Positions 9,401 through 47,011 of a stretch of 64,000 nucleotides of DNA are shown here, one piece after another. The notes beneath the pieces were generated by a model, which was not told where the DNA came from, searched no databases, and saw nothing but the letters and a program-made list of their open reading frames with translations. A program made the position numbers and the translations under genes. Origin of the DNA: Verrucomicrobia bacterium UBA3841. GTDB taxonomy: Bacteria; Verrucomicrobiota; Kiritimatiellia; RFP12; UBA1067. The DNA is taken from NCBI GenBank assembly GCA_002392765.1, contig DGHT01000014.1:38951-102950 (forward strand), written 5' to 3'. Within the stretch, counting starts at the first letter, position 1. The number at the start of each line of letters is the position of its first letter.

Positions 9401-10669
9401 TCACGAGCCCGGCTGCAACGCTCTGAACCTGAGCAGCGCCTCGAGGAAATAGTAGTCGCCGTAGTCGAGCGGAGTGTCGATCTCGCTGCCGGCGGGCTTG
9501 TGTCCGACTCCGTGCTTCAGGAGCCAGTCGCCGTTCTCGCCCGGCTTCGCGAAGTACTCGTCGGAGCAAAGCGAAAGGAGCTGCTTCACCGCGAACGCGC
9601 GGTACTTCGCGCCCTTGTCGCCTGGAACGAATGTCGAGAGCTCGAGGAGCCCGGACGCCATGATCGACGCGGCGGAGGAGTCGCGCTCCTCGCCCGGCGC
9701 GCCGAAATCCCAGTACGGGACACCGTCGGCGGGCATGTTCGGATGGTTCATCGCGAAGTCGGAGACCTTCTGCGCGAACTCGAGGAATGCGGGTTCCTTC
9801 GTCTCGCGGTACATCATCGTGTAGCCGTAGATGGCCCAGCTCTGCCCGCGGCTCCACGCCGTCTCGCACGAGAGGCCCTGTCCGCGGCGGATCTCCTGGA
9901 CCGCGCCGAGGAAGCCCGGGCGCTGGTCGTAGTTCAGCACGTGGTACGTGCCGCCGTCCGCGCGGAAGTGGTGCTCCATCGTCTTCACGGAGTGGGAGCG
10001 CGCGATGTCGTCGAAGCGCTTCGCGTTCCCCCGTTCCCCGTTCCCCGTTCCCCGTTCCCCGTTCTTCGCCGCCCACTCGAGGAGCTCGAGGTTCATCATG
10101 TTGTCTGGGATGACGAGGAAGTTGTCTTTCTCGTCTATCGCACCCCAGCTTCTGATTACTCCGAGATCGGGGCTGAACCTCTTCGAGAGGGATTCCGCCG
10201 TCTCGAGGAGCAGCGCGTCGTACTTGCCGGTATTAAGCAGTCTTCTCGCGTTGCCGAACGAGCAGTACATGATGAAGCCGACATCATGGTTGTCGGAGAC
10301 CTTCGAGTTCGGGGCGATGAACTCCGTCCAGACCGTCGCACGGTCCTTGAAGAAGCCGTCGCCCGTCGCCTCGTAGAGGTACCAGAGAGAGCCCGGGAAG
10401 TGTCCGGACGTCCACCAGTAGATGGAACGCATGTCGAGCTTTCCGGTCTTGGCGTTCCACCCGTGGGGGACGCGGCGCTCGCCGTGCGGCTTGTCCCCGT
10501 GCGGAACAGCCTCCATGACGTCGCCCTTGTCCATGAGCGGAGTCGCCGCCGCGTCGATCGCGCGGTAGTGCGCCGCGCTCTTCGCGAAGACTTCCGGCAG
10601 CAGAGCCTGCAGTTTCGCCTCCTGTGGATTGGCCAAAGCGGCCGCTATGAGCACTGATGCCAGAAGCAT
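9401..10669 (-). CDS. Glycoside hydrolase family 88-like unsaturated glucuronyl hydrolase
   Basis: 422 aa with signal-like N-terminus MLLASVLIAAALA. Segments RSIYWWTSGHFPGSLWYLYEATGD, DNHDVGFIMYCSFGNA, IPDNMMNLELL and WSRGQSWAIYGYT match GH88 by eye. It is the last gene of the DUF4861-kduI-kduD block. Confidence 0.8.
   Translation of the reverse strand: MLLASVLIAAALANPQEAKLQALLPEVFAKSAAHYRAIDAAATPLMDKGDVMEAVPHGDKPHGERRVPHGWNAKTGKLDMRSIYWWTSGHFPGSLWYLYEATGDGFFKDRATVWTEFIAPNSKVSDNHDVGFIMYCSFGNARRLLNTGKYDALLLETAESLSKRFSPDLGVIRSWGAIDEKDNFLVIPDNMMNLELLEWAAKNGERGTGNGERGNAKRFDDIARSHSVKTMEHHFRADGGTYHVLNYDQRPGFLGAVQEIRRGQGLSCETAWSRGQSWAIYGYTMMYRETKEPAFLEFAQKVSDFAMNHPNMPADGVPYWDFGAPGEERDSSAASIMASGLLELSTFVPGDKGAKYRAFAVKQLLSLCSDEYFAKPGENGDWLLKHGVGHKPAGSEIDTPLDYGDYYFLEALLRFRALQPGS
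10023..10063. repeat. Heptanucleotide tandem repeat (AACGGGG on the coding strand), 5 units, inside the GH88 CDS
   Basis: Plus strand reads gcgtt-cccccgtt-(ccccgtt)x4. One unit carries an extra C, so the total is 36 nt and stays in frame. It is translated as NGERGTGNGERG. Confidence 0.9.
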
Positions 10670-12429: not shown

Positions 12430-13328
12430 TTGTCTTTTCCTTTCGTTTGTGTTCTAAACTTGGAATCTATCATGGCCTTGAACATACGGGCCACAGACTG
12501 TTCGCTCGCGACCTGCTCGCCGCGTACGTAATCGTGCCACGACTTCGCGTCGCGAAACCTACCGGCCTCGGTCCAGTCAGCGCCGGCGCGAACGAGAAGC
12601 GCGGTACCGTGATGTTTCAATGGCTCTGTCATTATCATCTTCGCGCCTTCGGGGCCGTCGGCAAGCGCGATGCCGCCCATGCCCGGCATCGCGAATATCG
12701 CGTTCATCATAGAGCCATCCTCGCCCTCGCGGTTGTGCGGTTTCTCGAAGAGCGACACGATGAGTTTCTTCTCGTCGATGAAAAGATCGCCCGTGTGCTC
12801 GCGTGCCGCGCTGAGGTCAAGCCCGACGCCGATCTCGAGCCCCTCAACCGGGACATCCTCCGAAAGCGTCACGGCCTCAGTGAAAAACGAACTTCCTTTT
12901 TCCAGTACGATTCCAAGCGTCATCGTGCCGCCGATCGGGAGCTTGTAGTCGAGCTCGAACGAGCAGCGCTCCTCGCAATTGGCAAGAATGCGATAGTCCA
13001 CCCAGTTGCCGTAGTCGGGAAGCCACTTGCCGTCCTTCCTGAACGCCACTCCGCCTACGCCGCGCCCCGGGCCTACGGCATAGTCGTCCATGCCGAAACC
13101 GTTGACGTTCTTGTGCCAGTTGCCGTACCTCTTCGGCTCTCGCAGGAGATGCACGACGAAGTTGTTCGTTGTCGCCTTGTTGAAGACGTCGATGCCGCTC
13201 CACTTGTGGACATCACCCGGCCCGTAGGCGCGAAAGCCCGTGCGGTCGTTTTCCCAGAAGAAGTCGTTCGCCCGCTCCGGCGCCTCCCCGCAGAGGCACG
13301 TAGTCGCTATCAATATTGCCGCAATCAC
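12426..13328 (-). CDS. DUF4861-like protein commonly linked to kduI/kduD
   Basis: ORF 12426..13469, but the first 47 codons read through a repeat array. AGGAGGAGG followed by GTG at 13328 gives [14 protein letters not shown], a signal/lipobox-like N-terminus. [22 protein letters not shown] and [13 protein letters not shown] resemble DUF4861 by eye. Confidence 0.65.
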
Positions 13329-14593
13329 AACCCTCCTCCTTGCTCTTGCTGTTGTACGCTTGCTGTTGCCCCTTGCTGTCGTACGCTTGCTGTTCTCGCC
13401 TTGCCCAGATCGGCCCTCGAGAAGCCGGCCGCAAGGTCGCCTATCGACTTGGCTGCAAGGTTGAGCCATTCAAACCGAGCCTTGCCGTAACTCGCGCGAG
13501 CTGCGCCAGTCTCGCGCGGCGCGAATGGCGACAGCTGAAGAAGCCGCCCCTCGGCGCACAAATCGAAATCTCCGCCCCACGGCTTGTAGTAGCGGCCCAT
13601 GCCCTCGGCGAGCAGCTGCACCACCCTCCCGCCGCGAGCAATGGCCTCGGCCTTGACAGCTTTCTCTCCCGGGGAAATCCAGGGGCTAACGAGCACAGCC
13701 CCGCGCTCGGCCTTTGCGCCAAGCTTCGCGACAAGTTCGGCGAGCTTGTCGTCTGGCGTCGCCGTTGATATTCTAACGCTCACGAGAAGCGGTGCGTCCA
13801 ACAAAAACGGGTTGCCGACGGCAGTCCAGGCAAGGGGGCGACAAGCGGCAGCAAGCGTACTACAACAAGTGTCGCCCCTTGCTGTCGTACGCTTGCTGTC
13901 GTACGCTTGCTGTTGCCCCTTGCTGTTGCCCCTTGCTGTCGTACGCTTGCTGTCGTACGCTTGCTGTTCTTCAAACGCCCTCAACACCCGGTTGCCCTTC
14001 CTTGGCTTTGCGATTTCCTCGCCGGTTTCGACGTCCCAAAGCTCGCCGCCGTTTCGCGCAAAGGAACGGAAATCCCAGCTGTCGGCACCATCAACGCCAG
14101 CCAGCGTTGCGGATGCGCGCTCAAGACGCCAGTGCCTAAAGCCCATGACCTTCTTGAAAAGCCCTGGGTTATTCTCCTTTATCCAGCGACGCTTGGCGTT
14201 TGACAAGACATAGTTTATCTGCCTATGAAGCTGCCCCTTCGCAAGGCAAACCGAGTCTCGCCAAAGCTCGCACCACACCCTGCGGCCTATGCGCCTCTCA
14301 ACCTCGCCTGCAAAGAAGGCAATGACCTCGTCGAGAACAGCCGCCCCTTCATCGGTTATGTAGACAATGCCGTGGAAGTGGTCGGGCATTATCGCATTGT
14401 AAGTAGCCCTAACGCCAGGAAACTTCGCCTCGATCGCCTGCCATGAATCGTAAACCGCCCGGCCTTCCCCGGTGCGTTCAACACCCCACTCTCTCAGAGT
14501 GCCAAAGACATTGGCCCTCGGCTCGGTGACAAGCGTTATCATATAGTTGCATCGCGAGTCATAGCACCAGCCCAAGAGCCCCTTGTGGCGCAT
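13325..14593 (-). CDS. HUH (Y1, RAYT/IS200-like) transposase domain continuous in frame with a DprA/SLOG-like C-terminal module; internal and terminal repeat arrays are read through
   Basis: Start placed at ATG 14593 (MRHKGLLGWCYDSRCNYMITLVTEPRANVFG). HUH motif in AIMPDHFHGIVYI. Candidate catalytic Tyr in LWRDSVCLAKGQLHRQINYVLSNAKR (compare FWEH..YIHINPVK of RAYTs). After array B, AVLVSPWISPGEKAVKAEAIARGGRVVQLLAEGMGRYYKPWGGDFDLCAEGRLLQLSPF follows the DprA pattern VVSGxAxGID..A..GG..IAVL..G....YP....L......G.LLSEF. There is no in-frame stop from 14593 to 13325, and the stop overlaps the DUF4861 GTG (GTGA). Confidence 0.5.
   Translation of the reverse strand: MRHKGLLGWCYDSRCNYMITLVTEPRANVFGTLREWGVERTGEGRAVYDSWQAIEAKFPGVRATYNAIMPDHFHGIVYITDEGAAVLDEVIAFFAGEVERRIGRRVWCELWRDSVCLAKGQLHRQINYVLSNAKRRWIKENNPGLFKKVMGFRHWRLERASATLAGVDGADSWDFRSFARNGGELWDVETGEEIAKPRKGNRVLRAFEEQQAYDSKRTTARGNSKGQQQAYDSKRTTARGDTCCSTLAAACRPLAWTAVGNPFLLDAPLLVSVRISTATPDDKLAELVAKLGAKAERGAVLVSPWISPGEKAVKAEAIARGGRVVQLLAEGMGRYYKPWGGDFDLCAEGRLLQLSPFAPRETGAARASYGKARFEWLNLAAKSIGDLAAGFSRADLGKARTASVRQQGATASVQQQEQGGGL
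13338..13405. repeat. Iteron array A: about 5 direct copies of CTTGCTGT at 13-14 bp spacing
   Basis: ccttgctcttgctgttgtacgcttgctgttgccccttgctgtcgtacgcttgctgttctcgccttgcc. It lies between the end of the DprA-like segment and the DUF4861 start. Confidence 0.85.
13831..13968. repeat. Iteron array B: one inverted plus about 7 direct CTTGCTGT units, inside the transposase ORF
   Basis: caagggggcgacaagcggcagcaagcgtactacaacaagtgtcgccccttgctgtcgtacgcttgctgtcgtacgcttgctgttgccccttgctgttgccccttgctgtcgtacgcttgctgtcgtacgcttgctgtt. The CAAGGGGGCGACA / TGTCGCCCCTTG arms and gcagcaagcgtac / gtacgcttgctgtc arms can form hairpins. The array is open in all three frames of the minus strand. Confidence 0.85.
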
Positions 14594-14598
14594 GGGAG

Positions 14599-14767
14599 TG
14601 ACAGCAAGCGTACTACAACAAGTGTCGCCGCCAGCCCCTTGCCGTCGGTTCTTGCTGTCGCTCCCTTGCTGTCGTACGCTTGCTGTCATTCCTTGCTGTC
14701 GCCCCCTTGCTGTTGTACGCTTGCTGTCATTCCTTGCTGTCGCTCCCTTGCTGTCGTACGCTTGCCG
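14599..14767. repeat. Iteron array C: one inverted plus about 9 direct CTTGCTGT units, filling the whole spacer between the EIIC stop and the transposase start
   Basis: gacagcaagcgtac (14600..14613) is the exact reverse complement of gtacgcttgctgtc (14674..14687). The direct units are spaced 13-14 bp apart. The segment gcagcaagcgtactacaacaagtgtcgcc is shared with array B. Confidence 0.85.
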
Positions 14768-16138
14768 TCATTTCGCCCTTCTGATCCTCAGCCAATTCAC
14801 GGCGCACATGCCGATGGCGAGCAACCCCGCGCCGACCGCGCCGATCCACTTGAACGAAACCGTAAGATGGTAAACCGCCCAGCACCACAGCGCGCTCGCA
14901 AAATCGAGCGCCGCACCGCCCTCGAAGCCCTCAGGAACGGCAATGCCGTCGCAGTTCGCCGCGGCAATCGCCTTGGTGAACGCGGGAGTGAGGTTCGTGA
15001 CAAAGAAAAGCCCGGCTACGAGCGCGACGAGACCGATGACAAACGTCTTCGGCACATTGCCCTTCGTAATCGGCAGGACGCACGGGAAAAGGTAGAACAT
15101 CCCGGCGAGCGAGGCGAGCGGCAGGAATTTGTTTCCGGGAAGGAAAACGGAGAGGAAGAGTATCACGGGAATAAGCAGAATCGAGACGACGAGCGTCGTC
15201 GGATGGCCGATCACGAGCGCGGGGCTCATTCCGATGGAAAGTCCCTTGAGTCCCGAGAAGCGCTTTTCGATAAAGCTCCTCGTCTGTTCGCAGATTGGCT
15301 TGAGCCCCTCGATGAAGAGCGCCGTAATGCGGGGTATGAGCTCCATCACCGCGCCGACCGTCACGCCAAGCTTCAGTATCTGCGGTATCGAATCGACCAC
15401 GGCCTTCCACGAATCGCACCTGAGCGCGCCGATTCCGCAGCCGATCACAAGGCCGAGGAAAAGCGGCTCGCCGAGAAGCCCGAACTTCCTCTTCATCCCC
15501 TCCGCGTCGATGTCGAGCTTCGAGATGCCGGGAATCCTGTCGAGGACCCGGCAAATGACGACCGCAAACGGAGTGAAGCTCTGGCAGAACGGCTGCGGAA
15601 TGGAGATGCCGTCCATGTCCTTGTAGTACGACTGGAAGCCCTTCGTCGTGAAGTCGGCCATGCAAAGCGTGATGACGTAGAGGACGATCGCCGCATAGAA
15701 CGCCCACGCGAGCGAGCCGGTAGCAAAGAACACCATCGCGCCGAGAAAGGCGAAGTGCCAGTAGTTCCAGAGATCGATGTTCACCGTGCGCGTCACGCCC
15801 GCGACCAGCATGACGACGTTCACGCCGAGGCAGACGGGGATTATGAACGCGCCGACCGCGCAGGAGTACGCGACCGCCGCAGCCGCCGGCCAGCCAAGGT
15901 CGAAGAACGGGAGGTTCAGGTGGTAGAGGTCGGTCATGCCCTTCAGGGCGGGCCCCAGACTCGACGTCAAAAGAGCCGTCACGACGCCCAGCCCGACGAA
16001 ACCGATGCCCACGAGAAGGCCCGCCTTCAGCGCCTTCGAGAACTTGATGCCGATAAGCATGCCCAAGATGGTGAATATGACGGGCATCATGACCGATGCG
16101 CCGAGTCGTCTGATTATATATGTAAAAACCTCTGTCAT
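14768..16138 (-). CDS. PTS EIIC component of the galactitol (EIIC-GAT) family; no EIIA/EIIB nearby
   Basis: 456 aa polytopic membrane protein. The N-terminus MTEVFTYIIRRLGASVMMPVIFTILGMLIGIKFSKALKAGLLVGIGFVGL is GatC-like by eye. Confidence 0.75.
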   Translation of the reverse strand: MTEVFTYIIRRLGASVMMPVIFTILGMLIGIKFSKALKAGLLVGIGFVGLGVVTALLTSSLGPALKGMTDLYHLNLPFFDLGWPAAAAVAYSCAVGAFIIPVCLGVNVVMLVAGVTRTVNIDLWNYWHFAFLGAMVFFATGSLAWAFYAAIVLYVITLCMADFTTKGFQSYYKDMDGISIPQPFCQSFTPFAVVICRVLDRIPGISKLDIDAEGMKRKFGLLGEPLFLGLVIGCGIGALRCDSWKAVVDSIPQILKLGVTVGAVMELIPRITALFIEGLKPICEQTRSFIEKRFSGLKGLSIGMSPALVIGHPTTLVVSILLIPVILFLSVFLPGNKFLPLASLAGMFYLFPCVLPITKGNVPKTFVIGLVALVAGLFFVTNLTPAFTKAIAAANCDGIAVPEGFEGGAALDFASALWCWAVYHLTVSFKWIGAVGAGLLAIGMCAVNWLRIRRAK

Positions 16139-44127: not shown

Positions 44128-45705
44128 TCATTTCACGACCTCCCAATGGCCGGTCTGCTTGTTGCCCTCACGACGGATAACTCCCTTTTGCACAAGTGTA
44201 CCAATCGCCGTGTTGATGGTATCTTTATTGAGGCCAAGTTTGGCCACCATCCCTCGATAGGTAAGAAACGCATCTTGCCTCAAAGCTTCATAAACTTGAC
44301 GACATGATGACGGCAAATCAGACCATGCAATTGGTCGGGTCTTGGCCGGATCTTGGTCGGGTCTTGGTCGGGTCTTGGTCGGGTCTTGGTCGGGTCTTGG
44401 GCCGATTTGGGACACTTTTGGGGCACCTTGGGCCGATTCTTGGGCACTCTTGGGCCGATTGGCCGTGCTTTGGCCTGAATCCGTGTAAACAGTAACCTTG
44501 ACCCGGTCAGGATCGTATTCCTCCGAGATGACAGGTTCAGGAAGGCCGTGTTTCTTCCAGTGCCCATATAGATCGGCAAGGCCCATGCCGGAGCGTTCGC
44601 CAATGTCGACGAGGGCGAAGATGTTGAAGATGTGCGAATTGCGTGCATCGCTGGTCCCGCCCTCAACGGCAACCGCCTTGTTGACGCGGAATACGCCAGG
44701 ATTGGAGAAGCTGATCGTCTCCGCCTGTTTCTCGATAACGATGCCGCGGCGACCATGATAGTCTGCATGGATAAGCGCGTTCGCCAGCAACTCACGCAGA
44801 GATTTGTGTATCTCGTTCTCCTCCACGCGCAGGCCCTCGGAATCTATCTCAAACGGCACCTTTACATGCGAGGTGATGCGATCATAGACCATCAGGTAGA
44901 AGTCGTAGATGTTGCCGCTCCACGTCGCGTCATGCGCGGCGACGCGATCCGTCCAGCGCGTATCGGTGGAAAGTCTTTCGCGATAGTCGAGAAAGAAATC
45001 TGGAAGGATATCCATGATCTGTCCGAACTCGGCAAAGCATACAAGTCCGGCGAGATTGGGATGCACCTTGCCGTCCTCGCCGCGTCTTGCAGCGCGAATG
45101 CGCACAAGGAATTCCTCATCAGGCAAATCGTTCCAGATGTGCCCAGGTTTCTTGGACTTGAACCGATTGCGATAGCTACGGATGGTTTTGGAGCACAAAT
45201 CGTCTACCGTCAACTCGTCAAGCAGACATGCATCGGCCGTCTCAACGCAGGCATCCCGCAACATGGCCTTCACAGACTCGCGCGGGCAGTGATAATCTCC
45301 CTCGCCATTGCGCCGAAAACTGCCGCTGAACATGTCCTTTCCGATGTAAACAGGGCGATCCTGGCGATCCGCCCGCGGCACATCTATCACGACCACATCG
45401 CGACCTCGGCATTTCACAGAATAGACGTGCCGATCGAAGAGGATATTGACGCTGACCTTCTCGCGATTGTTGACGCAATCCCAAAAACGCTTGATCAACG
45501 CTGTAGCATTGGACACGCCGACAATCGAAAACTTGCCGCCAACCTCCTTCACGCCAAGAACAATCACGCCGCCGTCAGTGTTGGCGAACGCGCTATACGA
45601 CTCCCAGAGGGAATCGGGCAGCCCGCCGGATGCATCCTTGCATTCGGTATGGACCACCTCGCCCTGCTTTACAAGCCGCTCAATCTGTTTCGTTGTAAGT
45701 TTCAT
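44128..45705 (-). CDS. Schlafen/AlbA_2-domain protein with HATPase_c_4-like core and C-terminal winged-helix (COG2865-type putative regulator/defence-associated protein)
   Basis: 525 aa. N-terminal ..[36 protein letters not shown] (AlbA_2), central [31 protein letters not shown], a repeat-encoded linker [23 protein letters not shown], and a C-terminal wHTH (..[23 protein letters not shown]). Confidence 0.8.
   Translation of the reverse strand: [525 protein letters not shown]
44331..44462. repeat. 11-bp tandem repeat (CAAGACCCGAC on the coding strand, about 7 units) plus degenerate CTTGGGCCGATT repeats, in the AlbA_2 interdomain linker
   Basis: ttggtcgggt cttggccggat (cttggtcgggt)x4 cttgggccgat.., then cttgggccgatt recurs at about 44427 and 44449. 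Three units (33 nt) encode [11 protein letters not shown]. Confidence 0.85.
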
Positions 45706-45926: not shown

Positions 45927-46359
45927 GGCGGCTCGGCAGGACGCCTCGCCCTACCAATGACACTATCTACACGTTCTACATGTTCTACACGGCTAAAACG
46001 ATCCCTCCCGGCGCGGCTGGAATCCGCGCCCTACCAATGCGGTCGCGCGGGAGCACACGCTTGCGCGCGCACCCGCTTGCGCGCGCACCCGCTTGCGCGC
46101 CCTTCGGGTTGCTTTCAGCAAGGTTCCCTCCGAAGCGGAGCTTCTCCGGTGCATCTTCGGGTTCGGCTTACGCCGAATGTTCCCTCCGAAGCGGAGCTTC
46201 TCCGGTGCATTTCGCGACCCTACCGTTTTGACGCGGCGGGACGCCGCATCTCCTTGGCGGTCACGCGGGACGCGCGACCCTATCGTTTTGACGCGGCGGG
46301 ACGCCTCATCTCCTTGGCGGTCGCGCGGGACGCGCGACCCTACCGTTTTGACGCGGCGG
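45927..46359. repeat. Intergenic repeat mosaic: REP-like hairpins and four different tandem repeats
   Basis: REP-like elements at 45927..45955 and 46010..46035, both ending CGCCCTACCAATG on the plus strand. 9-bp YGTTCTACA x3 at 45963..45989. 16-bp CACCCGCTTGCGCGCG x3 at 46054..46101. 32-bp GTTCCCTCCGAAGCGGAGCTTCTCCGGTGCAT x2 at 46123..46210. Exact 60-bp period x2.4 at 46213..46359, each unit carrying a GTAGGG hairpin (46259..46284 and 46319..46344). Confidence 0.85.
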
Positions 46360-47011
46360 TTCTGCGTTCCACCCCTTCGCGCGGTTCGCACTCCGGCGGT
46401 ATCCTCAGCGGCTCCAGGGGGGAGTCGTCCGCCGGAAGAGCCTGCCACGCGGCGGAATAGACGCTCATGCCGCGCTCGCGGAATTTAGTCTCGAACTCCG
46501 TCCACACTTCTCTCGGCCTCGGCATGGGGTCGACGCGCAGGAAGCGCGGATCGGACGAAAAGCATTCCTCCACCGTCCCGAAATACTCCGCGTGGTCTGT
46601 CGCGAACTCGATCCTGCCGCCGATCTCCAGCCGCTTCCAGAGCGCATTGAGAAACAGCGGCCCGAAGAGTCTGTGCGAATGATGTCTCTTCTTGGGCCAC
46701 GGATCCGGAAAGAACACGTACACCCGCCTCGCTCCGTGCTCCGGCAGCAGATAGTGGAATACGTAAAGCGCTTCGAGCCTCACGATCTTCACGTTGTCGA
46801 GCCCCGCGCGCCTTACTTTGTTCGCGAAAAGCCTTACGCGGCCGAGCATTCTTTCTATGCCCAGAAAAGCGCAGTCGCGGTTCGCCGCCGCGCGGGCGGT
46901 CAGAAACGACCCTTTGCCGGAACCGACTTCGACTTCGAGAGGGGAAGGGAGGTCGAACGGCTTGCAGATGTCGGCCACCCGTATCACAGGGTCTATATCT
47001 TGAAGAAGCAT
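46340..47011 (-). CDS. trmB: tRNA (guanine-N7)-methyltransferase
   Basis: ORF 46340..47224 is over-extended. ATG 47011 gives MLLQDIDPVIR..EVGSGKGSFL..FFPDPWPKKRHHSHRLF. The stop TAG lies inside the last CCCTACC of the 60-bp repeat. Confidence 0.85.
   Translation of the reverse strand: MLLQDIDPVIRVADICKPFDLPSPLEVEVGSGKGSFLTARAAANRDCAFLGIERMLGRVRLFANKVRRAGLDNVKIVRLEALYVFHYLLPEHGARRVYVFFPDPWPKKRHHSHRLFGPLFLNALWKRLEIGGRIEFATDHAEYFGTVEECFSSDPRFLRVDPMPRPREVWTEFETKFRERGMSVYSAAWQALPADDSPLEPLRIPPECEPREGVERRTAASKR

Follow-up and report, generated by a model that had tools for sequence, protein, structure and literature searches.

A candidate REPtron-like element with a RAYT-like Y1 nuclease fused to a predicted DprA-like domain, inserted in an operon of a Verrucomicrobia bacterium

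How REP-associated tyrosine transposases (RAYTs) act in cells on repetitive extragenic palindromes (REPs), and what purpose RAYTs serve, is unsettled. The RAYTs of subclass 2.4 carry REPs in frame within their own genes, and their REPs are also present in unrelated genes (PMC6006769). In-frame REPs have likewise been described within unrelated functional genes, some of them clustered so that they account for tens of residues (Di Nocera et al., 2013, PMC3733652), and intragenic REPs are known in Opitutus terrae, a bacterium of the Planctomycetes-Verrucomicrobia-Chlamydiae group (PMC3733652). Here we describe a locus within a sugar operon, in a 64,000-nt stretch of Verrucomicrobia bacterium UBA3841, a Kiritimatiellae genome of the rumen type (contig DGHT01000014.1, positions 38,951 to 102,950; hereafter the window), where a gene for a 422-aa protein is associated with three arrays of a short tandem repeat. 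Our results suggest, with a probability that we put at about 0.65, that this locus is a REPtron-like element, in which a class-2-like (RAYT/TnpA_REP-like) Y1 nuclease is fused to a DprA-like domain and accompanied by its cognate repeats. These repeats are non-classical: the 13/14-nt units stand in tandem, only one end has a hairpin, and a GT[AG]G foot is absent. Neither the literature that we searched nor the 2018 TnpAY1 classification describes a Y1 nuclease that bears a DprA-like domain, in line with the first-pass annotation of this DNA, made from the sequence alone, which did not recognise such a link as described. What appears to be new is the fusion of the two domains, the hallmark of a large protein family that has no name yet. 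The behaviour of the repeats has precedent: the in-frame insertion of REPs in RAYT genes and in unrelated genes was already on record (PMC6006769, subclass 2.4; PMC3733652).

The closest described systems are the RAYT/TnpA_REP REPtrons of subclass 2.4 (Quentin et al., 2018; Bertels group 4). They have in common with this element the Y1 HUH core, the N of the Y---N(P) tyrosine motif, palindromic repeats of their own that flank the gene and also lie in frame within the nuclease and unrelated genes, variable repeat-rich inserts, an apparently low gene copy number and a long vertical residence. In contrast to subclass 2.4, the element has a DprA-like C-terminal domain of ~140 aa, which is given for no subclass in PMC6006769 Table 1, and its HUH motif reads DHFH instead of NH[IFV]H. 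Its repeat forms 13/14-nt tandem arrays with the hairpin at one end and without the GT[AG]G foot, its apparent genomic copy number is low, its score lies under the NCBIfam cut-off, and in its subfamily it is the linker joining the two domains, rather than the stretch from HUH to Tyr, that contains the in-frame insert. Rickettsia palindromic elements and intragenic REPs are also short palindromic repeats in frame in functional genes (PMC3733652), whereas the repeats described here are tandem 13/14-nt arrays, commonly 27-nt pairs, tied to a two-domain nuclease gene.

Fold and profile matches identify the N-terminal part of the protein as a Y1 HUH nuclease that resembles RAYTs and IS200 TnpA. The HUH motif (MPDHFHG, residues 69-75, window 14369-14389) is followed at a distance of 56 residues by the predicted catalytic Y128 (14210-14212), which lies in YVLSN, within QINYVLSNAKRR, and has a polar residue (N132) four positions after it. 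H72, H74, Y128 and N132 are invariant in alignments of 24 close and 24 distant homologues, and the RAYT-like motifs and spacing read from the sequence at first pass were found again. In the wider family the tyrosine motif is Y.xDNPRR and in this subfamily YVLSNAKRR, with the N of the class-2 motif (Y---NP) kept and the P replaced; residues ~140-205 form an extension peculiar to the subfamily. A model of the whole protein was poor (mean pLDDT 50), with residues 20-100 at pLDDT 62-87, and was used for the N-terminal domain only; in a Foldseek search of the PDB, each of the best 19 matches of this domain was to a transposase of the IS200/IS605 type (chains of IS608, ISDra2, IS200 and homologues), with probability 1.0 and E-values between 2e-4 and 2e-3. 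A PDB search with a diverse profile (A3) retrieved the ISDra2 TnpA at E 2.8e-5, and the same search with a profile of close homologues (A1) gave noise only. The NCBIfam model REP_Tyr_transpos matched the window protein at E 1e-4 (22 bits). For its relatives at 30-36% identity, the E-values of this model were between 1e-7 and 9e-15, and transpos_IS200 did far worse. Pfam Y1_Tnp matched 20 of the 36 family members at E<=10, and two of the relatives, P0137 (25.7 bits) and P0141 (25.0 bits), exceed the PF01797 gathering score of 23. The transposase identity proposed at first pass is thus borne out by fold, NCBIfam and PDB profile matches, and the TnpA-type fold, the HUH motif and the single Tyr that characterise the Y1 HUH superfamily are all present.

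DprA proteins, the best-known relatives of the C-terminal domain, bind single-stranded DNA (ssDNA) and load RecA. A model of the C-terminal 166 residues, built from a diverse alignment, reached pLDDT 87 and pTM 0.80. Among the best 14 PDB matches of this model, 13 were DprA chains from three species (4ljr/4ljk/4ljl, 3uqz, 5mll and 3maj; probability 1.0, E down to 2.5e-5) and one was the DprA-like ShosA (8zva) of the Shosta defence system. With profile A3, three Helicobacter pylori DprA chains appeared at the corresponding position in just ten PDB matches (E ~0.4). The predicted domain shares with DprA/Smf and ShosA a Rossmann-like core (query-normalised TM-score 0.49-0.62, probability 1.0) and, in the alignments, a parallel order of motifs: first GN..LL, then a beta strand with S.R behind it, and last SP.ISPGEK where DprA has SG.A.GID. 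In contrast to DprA, it has only 16-23% identity and lacks the SAM-like N-terminal and winged-helix C-terminal domains; in contrast to Shosta, there is no ShosT-like partner and no PADLOC match. No Pfam or NCBIfam model matched the C-terminal domain, and PF02481 gave no match at E<=10 in the window protein or in 36 family members. The model therefore supports, at the level of the fold only, a DprA-like domain of the SLOG group (LOG/Smf-DprA), and at that level it agrees with the DprA/SLOG-like module suggested at first pass.

Both domains belong to a single frame of 422 codons, as first described, and the fusion is found throughout the family. The full-length homologues retrieved number more than 287; they are 370-500 aa long and 64-91% identical, and most of them start at MRHKG. 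All 120 close homologues listed cover 90-100% of the query, one of them belongs to a Kiritimatiellae metagenome-assembled genome (MAG), and they vary chiefly in the length of the repeat-encoded linker and of the tails. A search of 1.84 billion cluster representatives (clustered at 50% identity) recovered 6702 proteins at a threshold of E<=1e-3 and 852 at the stricter E<=1e-10. The usual annotation in the family is hypothetical protein or transposase, and the best 150 representatives are mostly 285-480 aa long with both domains matched. The relatives at 30-36% identity all hold both domains in one protein of 300-450 aa, with invariant residues in the N-terminal half (M69, P70, H72, H74, D113, Y128, N132 and R135, D71 being near-invariant) and in the C-terminal half (G260-N261, E310, P338 and N378), and none of the eight distant relatives whose DNA was inspected has CTTGCTGT arrays. 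Since relatives without the linker array retain both domains, the fusion is ancestral and not a read-through artefact. Two separate genes, one RAYT and one DprA-like, that only seem fused through an array open in all frames would fit the array in the linker, which is open in six frames, and a stand-alone C-terminal domain of 137 aa (P0133). We find this very improbable, given the one-protein relatives just mentioned, the 90-100% coverage in all 120 close homologues listed, and P0022 and P0040, which stay in frame despite the near-complete deletion of the linker. Sequence comparison thus indicates that the linker array is a secondary in-frame insertion into an ancestral and widespread fusion, and not the junction of two modules joined by a repeat, as first proposed.

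Codon comparisons with eight homologous loci indicate purifying selection on both domains (dN/dS ~0.1), with values of 0.06-0.18 for the N-terminal and 0.07-0.12 for the C-terminal domain. In the linker (columns 280-395 of alignment A1), dN/dS is 0.19-0.84 and dS is low (for example 0.31 against 1.3-1.4 for L192). The low dS despite the high dN/dS shows that the linker is conserved as a DNA repeat rather than as a peptide. Several variant proteins were also observed (P0122, P0123, P0126, P0127, P0130, P0133 and P0217), comprising truncations, internal deletions that join the N- and C-terminal domains, and others; they include the 137-aa stand-alone C-terminal domain and one 620-aa form with an N-terminal NTP-transferase domain. 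In P0123, P0126 and P0127 the repeat linker shifts the frame and the open reading frame (ORF) is truncated, which could reflect real frameshifts or assembly errors. Members at 30-40% identity have their own, different palindromes or 15-18-nt tandem repeats within the coding sequence; most of these occupy the C-terminal tail or the stretch that separates HUH from Tyr (L102 4329-5054; L104 3863-5009, where one is also found just upstream; L193 5351-5423; L195 5366-5412).

The repeats are concentrated at this gene. Exact CTTGCTGT units occur 21 times in the window against 1.06 expected, a number reached in 0 of 100 shuffles, and 20 of the 21 fall in 13345-14754. In the sense of the gene, the unit is ACAGCAAG followed by a spacer of 5-6 nt, 13 or 14 nt in all, and the three arrays have the same orientation (Table 1). 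Array C comprises eight exact units and two CTTGCCGT variants, and beyond array A come AAGGAGGAGGG (13331-13341) and the GTG with which the DUF4861 gene starts (13326-13328). Arrays C and B, again in gene sense, each terminate in two inverted units, and the last two direct units together with this inverted pair form an imperfect hairpin of 22 bp. The ssDNA folding energy is -34.3 kcal/mol (z -8.0) for the upstream hairpin and -31.5 kcal/mol (z -5.9) for the internal one; array A gave no hairpin (z +0.6). All three plus-strand frames are open in each array. The gene strand has no stop in any frame of arrays A and B, but array C has TGA in two of three frames there, within GGAATGACAGC units. The first-pass annotation had counted about 5, 7 and 9 units, with one inverted unit at arrays B and C giving arms of 12-14 nt, and had described all frames of the arrays as open. 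The common orientation and the counts of A and B stand, array C has its two variants in addition to eight exact units, the inverted units are present as pairs with imperfect 22-nt arms, and the openness holds for the plus strand and not for array C on the gene strand.

Table 1. Features of the element, in window coordinates.
Feature	Position	Strand	Remarks
ORF, 422 aa and stop	13325-14593	minus	Y1 HUH and DprA-like domains, joined by a repeat-encoded linker
N-terminal Y1 HUH nuclease domain, residues 1-205	13979-14593	minus	fold and profile matches
Linker, residues 206-255	13829-13978	minus	encoded by array B and inverted arm; length differs among homologues
C-terminal DprA-like Rossmann (SLOG-type) domain, residues 256-395	13409-13828	minus	predicted structure
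Array A	13339-13394	minus	4 full units and 1 truncated; encodes C-terminal tail of ORF; no hairpin
Array B	13878-13967	minus	7 units, 90 nt = 30 codons, within ORF
Array C	14638-14768	minus	10 units of 13/14 nt, 41-nt super-period; upstream of gene, adjoins EIIC stop codon
Inverted pair, 3' arm (gene sense) of upstream hairpin	14601-14622	minus	arm ends 7 nt before ATG
Inverted pair, 3' arm of internal hairpin	13848-13869	minus	encodes CCSTLAA
Insertion relative to empty EIIC/DUF4861 sites	~13329-14767	minus	left edge +/- ~2 nt; right edge within ~13303-13345

At rolling-circle double-strand origins, direct repeats and a hairpin lie beside an HUH gene. The arrays and hairpins next to this HUH gene might be seen as resembling such an origin, and the locus would then be the remnant of a rolling-circle plasmid or phage, with a Rep protein and an origin made of iterons and a nick-site hairpin. 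This is hardly credible here: the fold and profile matches are Y1 transposases and not Rep proteins, the phage collection gave no match and the plasmid collection a single weak one, restricted to the N-terminal domain, the element lies in a chromosomal operon with a clean empty site, and arrays are also contained in unrelated genes. The arrays, with a hairpin and an amplified arm, match REP equivalents better than the replication iterons invoked at first pass.

A metagenome scan with the EIIC protein recovered both occupied sites, in which EIIC is 86-95% identical, and empty ones, which provides the comparison of syntenic EIIC-DUF4861 loci set beforehand as a test. In the empty sites L113 (EIIC 91% identical), L119 and L124, the EIIC stop codon overlaps the ATG of DUF4861 (ATGA, …GGGCGAAATGACGACAATG…) and not a single repeat unit is found; in more distant loci, KduI directly follows EIIC. 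Because the empty sites are devoid of units, the gene and its arrays constitute a single insertion unit of ~1.45 kb. The insert begins at most 2 nt past the EIIC stop and ends at a new AAGGAGGAGGG and the GTG that now starts DUF4861. The repeats are thus tied to the gene and not ubiquitous, as expected at first pass, and the locus offers a case from nature of an operon left intact by the repeat-bearing element that entered it, with the empty site for comparison. Three contexts were found: EIIC-GAT / DUF4861-KduI (the window, P0002, P0040, P0048 and P0063), GlcNAc 2-epimerase / GFO_IDH (P0043), and, in P0088, a site flanked by an FGE-sulfatase gene and by a glycoside-hydrolase or unannotated gene, the two flanking genes lying on the other strand. 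In 14 of the 14 homologous loci fetched first, units are present at the corresponding positions; further loci have 4-13 direct units upstream, 0-9 internally and 0-5 downstream, the two inverted units being constant. The 22-30 nt preceding the ATG (CTTGTTGTAGTACGCTTGCTGTCACTCCC, the hairpin arm) are kept in 12 of 13 subfamily loci, L110 having the opposite orientation. Direct units of the ACAACAAG type go together with CTTGTTGT inverted arms by lineage, and GTAG is found inside the 3' arm of the hairpin in most loci, although not in all. The gene stays at the same locus over a divergence of dS>1, and no second family gene exists in the 64-kb window.

The clean empty sites of close relatives and the three distinct contexts, together with top fold and sequence matches to IS200/IS605 TnpA structures, would also be expected of an autonomous IS200/IS605-type insertion sequence (IS), in which an active peel-and-paste transposase would carry the 1.45-kb unit as a whole, with the arrays and hairpins serving as its left and right ends. 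Indeed, the element has in common with the TnpA of IS608 and ISDra2 the hairpin-recognising ssDNA nuclease fold, and with these elements its appearance as an insertion relative to an empty site. We nevertheless regard this explanation as unlikely. The tyrosine motif is the class 2, RAYT-like Y---N and not the Y---Q of IS200 TnpA (PMC6006769 Table 1), and the relatives score far better as REP-associated than as IS200 transposases. The protein is about three times longer than IS200/IS605 TnpA, with an extra domain, and there is no tnpB. Hairpins occur upstream and internally and not at both ends, the right end having none, and several homologues are without the right array. Only one copy is present in 64 kb, with no sign of multiple near-identical copies in that window, and there is no phage match and no full-length plasmid match. 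Residence at the same locus across dS>1, with dN/dS of ~0.1, points to long vertical inheritance and not to IS turnover.

Units also occur away from the element. In related rumen and gut MAGs they lie in frame within other genes, often as 27-nt (13+14) pairs. KduI of L001 (7470-7491), L077 (2812-2833) and L097 (6356-6377) contains two in-frame units (…IKEIGTTASGQQQVF…), a net insertion of 27 nt (13+14) relative to the window KduI. In three MAGs, a CAZyme-like ORF of 1437-1448 aa carries the 9-residue repeat TASVQQQGG three, about four and six times, followed by the hairpin arm, and units are also held by the loop of an MFS-type sugar transporter and by further long ORFs. In-frame arrays with the hairpin arm were located in L015 (4372-5047), L019 (7538-7680), L081 (2917-3605), L101 (5434-6178), L041 (182-247) and L082 (4121-6768).

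These dispersed units bear on another explanation, namely that the arrays are simple repeats produced by slippage only, as in a contingency locus, and that the enzyme has an unrelated host role, for example in ssDNA repair or transformation. Slippage would agree with a period of 13/14 nt that is not divisible by three, with the frameshifted or truncated P0123, P0126 and P0127, where the repeat alters the frame and the ORF ends, with the different unit numbers of close relatives, and with the presence in the window of other short tandem repeats, one of them within coding sequence. We consider it quite unlikely, however, because the arrays always come with an inverted arm and a strong hairpin, and slippage creates no such arm. 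In addition, the unit family accompanies the gene into unrelated contexts and is missing from empty sites, identical units lie at dispersed sites within other genes, and the repeats or palindromes that distant members have in and around their own genes mirror the pairing of RAYTs and REPs.

A pattern scan of GTDB, run without a control pattern, also recovered long 13/14-nt arrays with the CTTGCTGT core and other spacers in unrelated phyla, often at contig ends (L020, L026, L029, L051, L062, L068, L083, L084, L094, L095 and L098; Akkermansiaceae, Spirochaetota, Myxococcales, Paenibacillus, Methyloversatilis and others). A profile hidden Markov model search found no family gene within 8 kb of them, and these arrays may be unrelated or due to chance. 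Two Bacteroidales loci considered as the same repeat, L023 and L032, were rejected, as they contain a different 13-nt repeat.

Several observations weigh against a REPtron-like element and must be considered in interpreting the locus. The NCBIfam cut-off of 80 bits (NF047646) is missed by the window protein (22 bits) and by its relatives (at most 54.8), and Pfam gave no match on the window protein, PF01797 included. The assignment of the C-terminal part to DprA draws on a predicted structure and on sub-threshold sequence matches. The canonical 5' GT[AG]G of REPs is at neither hairpin foot, and the downstream array is missing in several homologues and is therefore not an obligatory end. That the arms vary together could stem from homogenisation within a single family of repeats instead of selection for pairing. 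There is no further array in the remainder of the 64-kb window, and related MAGs have one or two blocks with at least three exact units each, so that the copy number appears low, an estimate made on incomplete MAGs in which arrays are prone to break assemblies. Finally, that the enzyme cleaves the units is something that we infer.

If the locus is nevertheless a REPtron-like element, the HUH/Tyr domain would bind the hairpin in ssDNA, for instance in the lagging-strand template, and would nick and rejoin the DNA beside it, mobilising or amplifying units as proposed for RAYTs and REPs. The surplus of direct units would allow the inverted arm several pairing registers, which, together with slippage, would let the arrays expand and contract. 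The DprA-like domain would hold the ssDNA, dimerise the enzyme or recruit RecA. Because its arm ends 7 nt before the ATG, the upstream hairpin would probably also limit translation of the gene. The persistence of the element in the operon could be explained by the stop-poor arrays and by the new ribosome-binding site and start that it provides to the downstream gene.

Pfam identified EIIC-GAT, DUF4861, KduI and a short-chain dehydrogenase around the gene. The first-pass annotation had placed it between EIIC-GAT and DUF4861-kduI-kduD-GH88; these four assignments fit that order, while the ORF beyond the dehydrogenase, its GH88 gene, had no Pfam match at E<=1e-5, and the gene at the equivalent position in L192 has a faint GH88 match and nothing else. 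The overlap of the ORF stop with the DUF4861 start, also reported at first pass, is read directly in the sequence: the TGA (13327-13325) shares bases with the GTG (13328-13326), DUF4861 itself being assigned by Pfam. The 422-aa product starts with MRHKG, and an alternative in-frame ATG at 14689, within array C, would give 454 aa (32 residues more). The promoter and terminator scan found nothing on the gene strand, and an Rfam search gave chance-level hairpin matches only.

Array C has a further peculiarity on the gene strand (window 14689-14770). An ATG that shares bases with the EIIC stop (ATGA) begins a mini-ORF of 13 codons (MTASVRQQGSDSKE), whose stop overlaps the next ATG in turn, and a second such step leads to the 454-aa frame. 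The super-period of 41 nt corresponds to 14 codons less the single overlapping nucleotide. The same relay of mini-ORFs, with a 32-nt period, occurs in L001 (5866-6003), and L005 has an upstream in-frame ATG 45 codons before MRHKG. This chain of overlapping ATGA may serve to couple translation step by step into the gene; alternatively, the array may contain the true start of the gene.

Other tandem repeats were observed elsewhere in the window. A 7-nt repeat at 10024-10064, within the GH88-like ORF (5.7 copies, 97% matches), encodes GERGTGNGERG and is another in-frame tandem repeat within a carbohydrate-enzyme gene. Dense intergenic tandem repeats of other types lie at 44331-44460 and 46053-46360; these are an 11-nt unit (TTGGTCGGGTC, 6.4 copies) followed by related units of 10-11 nt, a 16-nt unit (three copies), a ~32-nt unit (two copies) and a 60-nt unit (2.5 copies).

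A more far-reaching idea, which we offer as decidedly speculative and improbable, is that the family is a large and so far overlooked RAYT-like class with a hard-wired DprA-like RecA loader, which performs nick-primed, RecA-assisted copying and writes 27-nt peptide modules. If this were true, units would be copied by RecA-assisted strand invasion and not by classical peel-and-paste, and frame-preserving modules of 27 nt would enter the linkers and loops of host proteins, among them CAZymes, transporters and the enzyme itself, the writing of peptide modules being either a by-product or a selected function.

For the candidate REPtron-like element itself, the C-terminal domain suggests what may happen after a RAYT-type nick, in a form definite enough to be put to the test. 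The family is large, its C-terminal domain is without a Pfam or NCBIfam model and its full-length proteins fall under the curated transposase cut-offs, and the repeats of the element turn into coding sequence in other genes.

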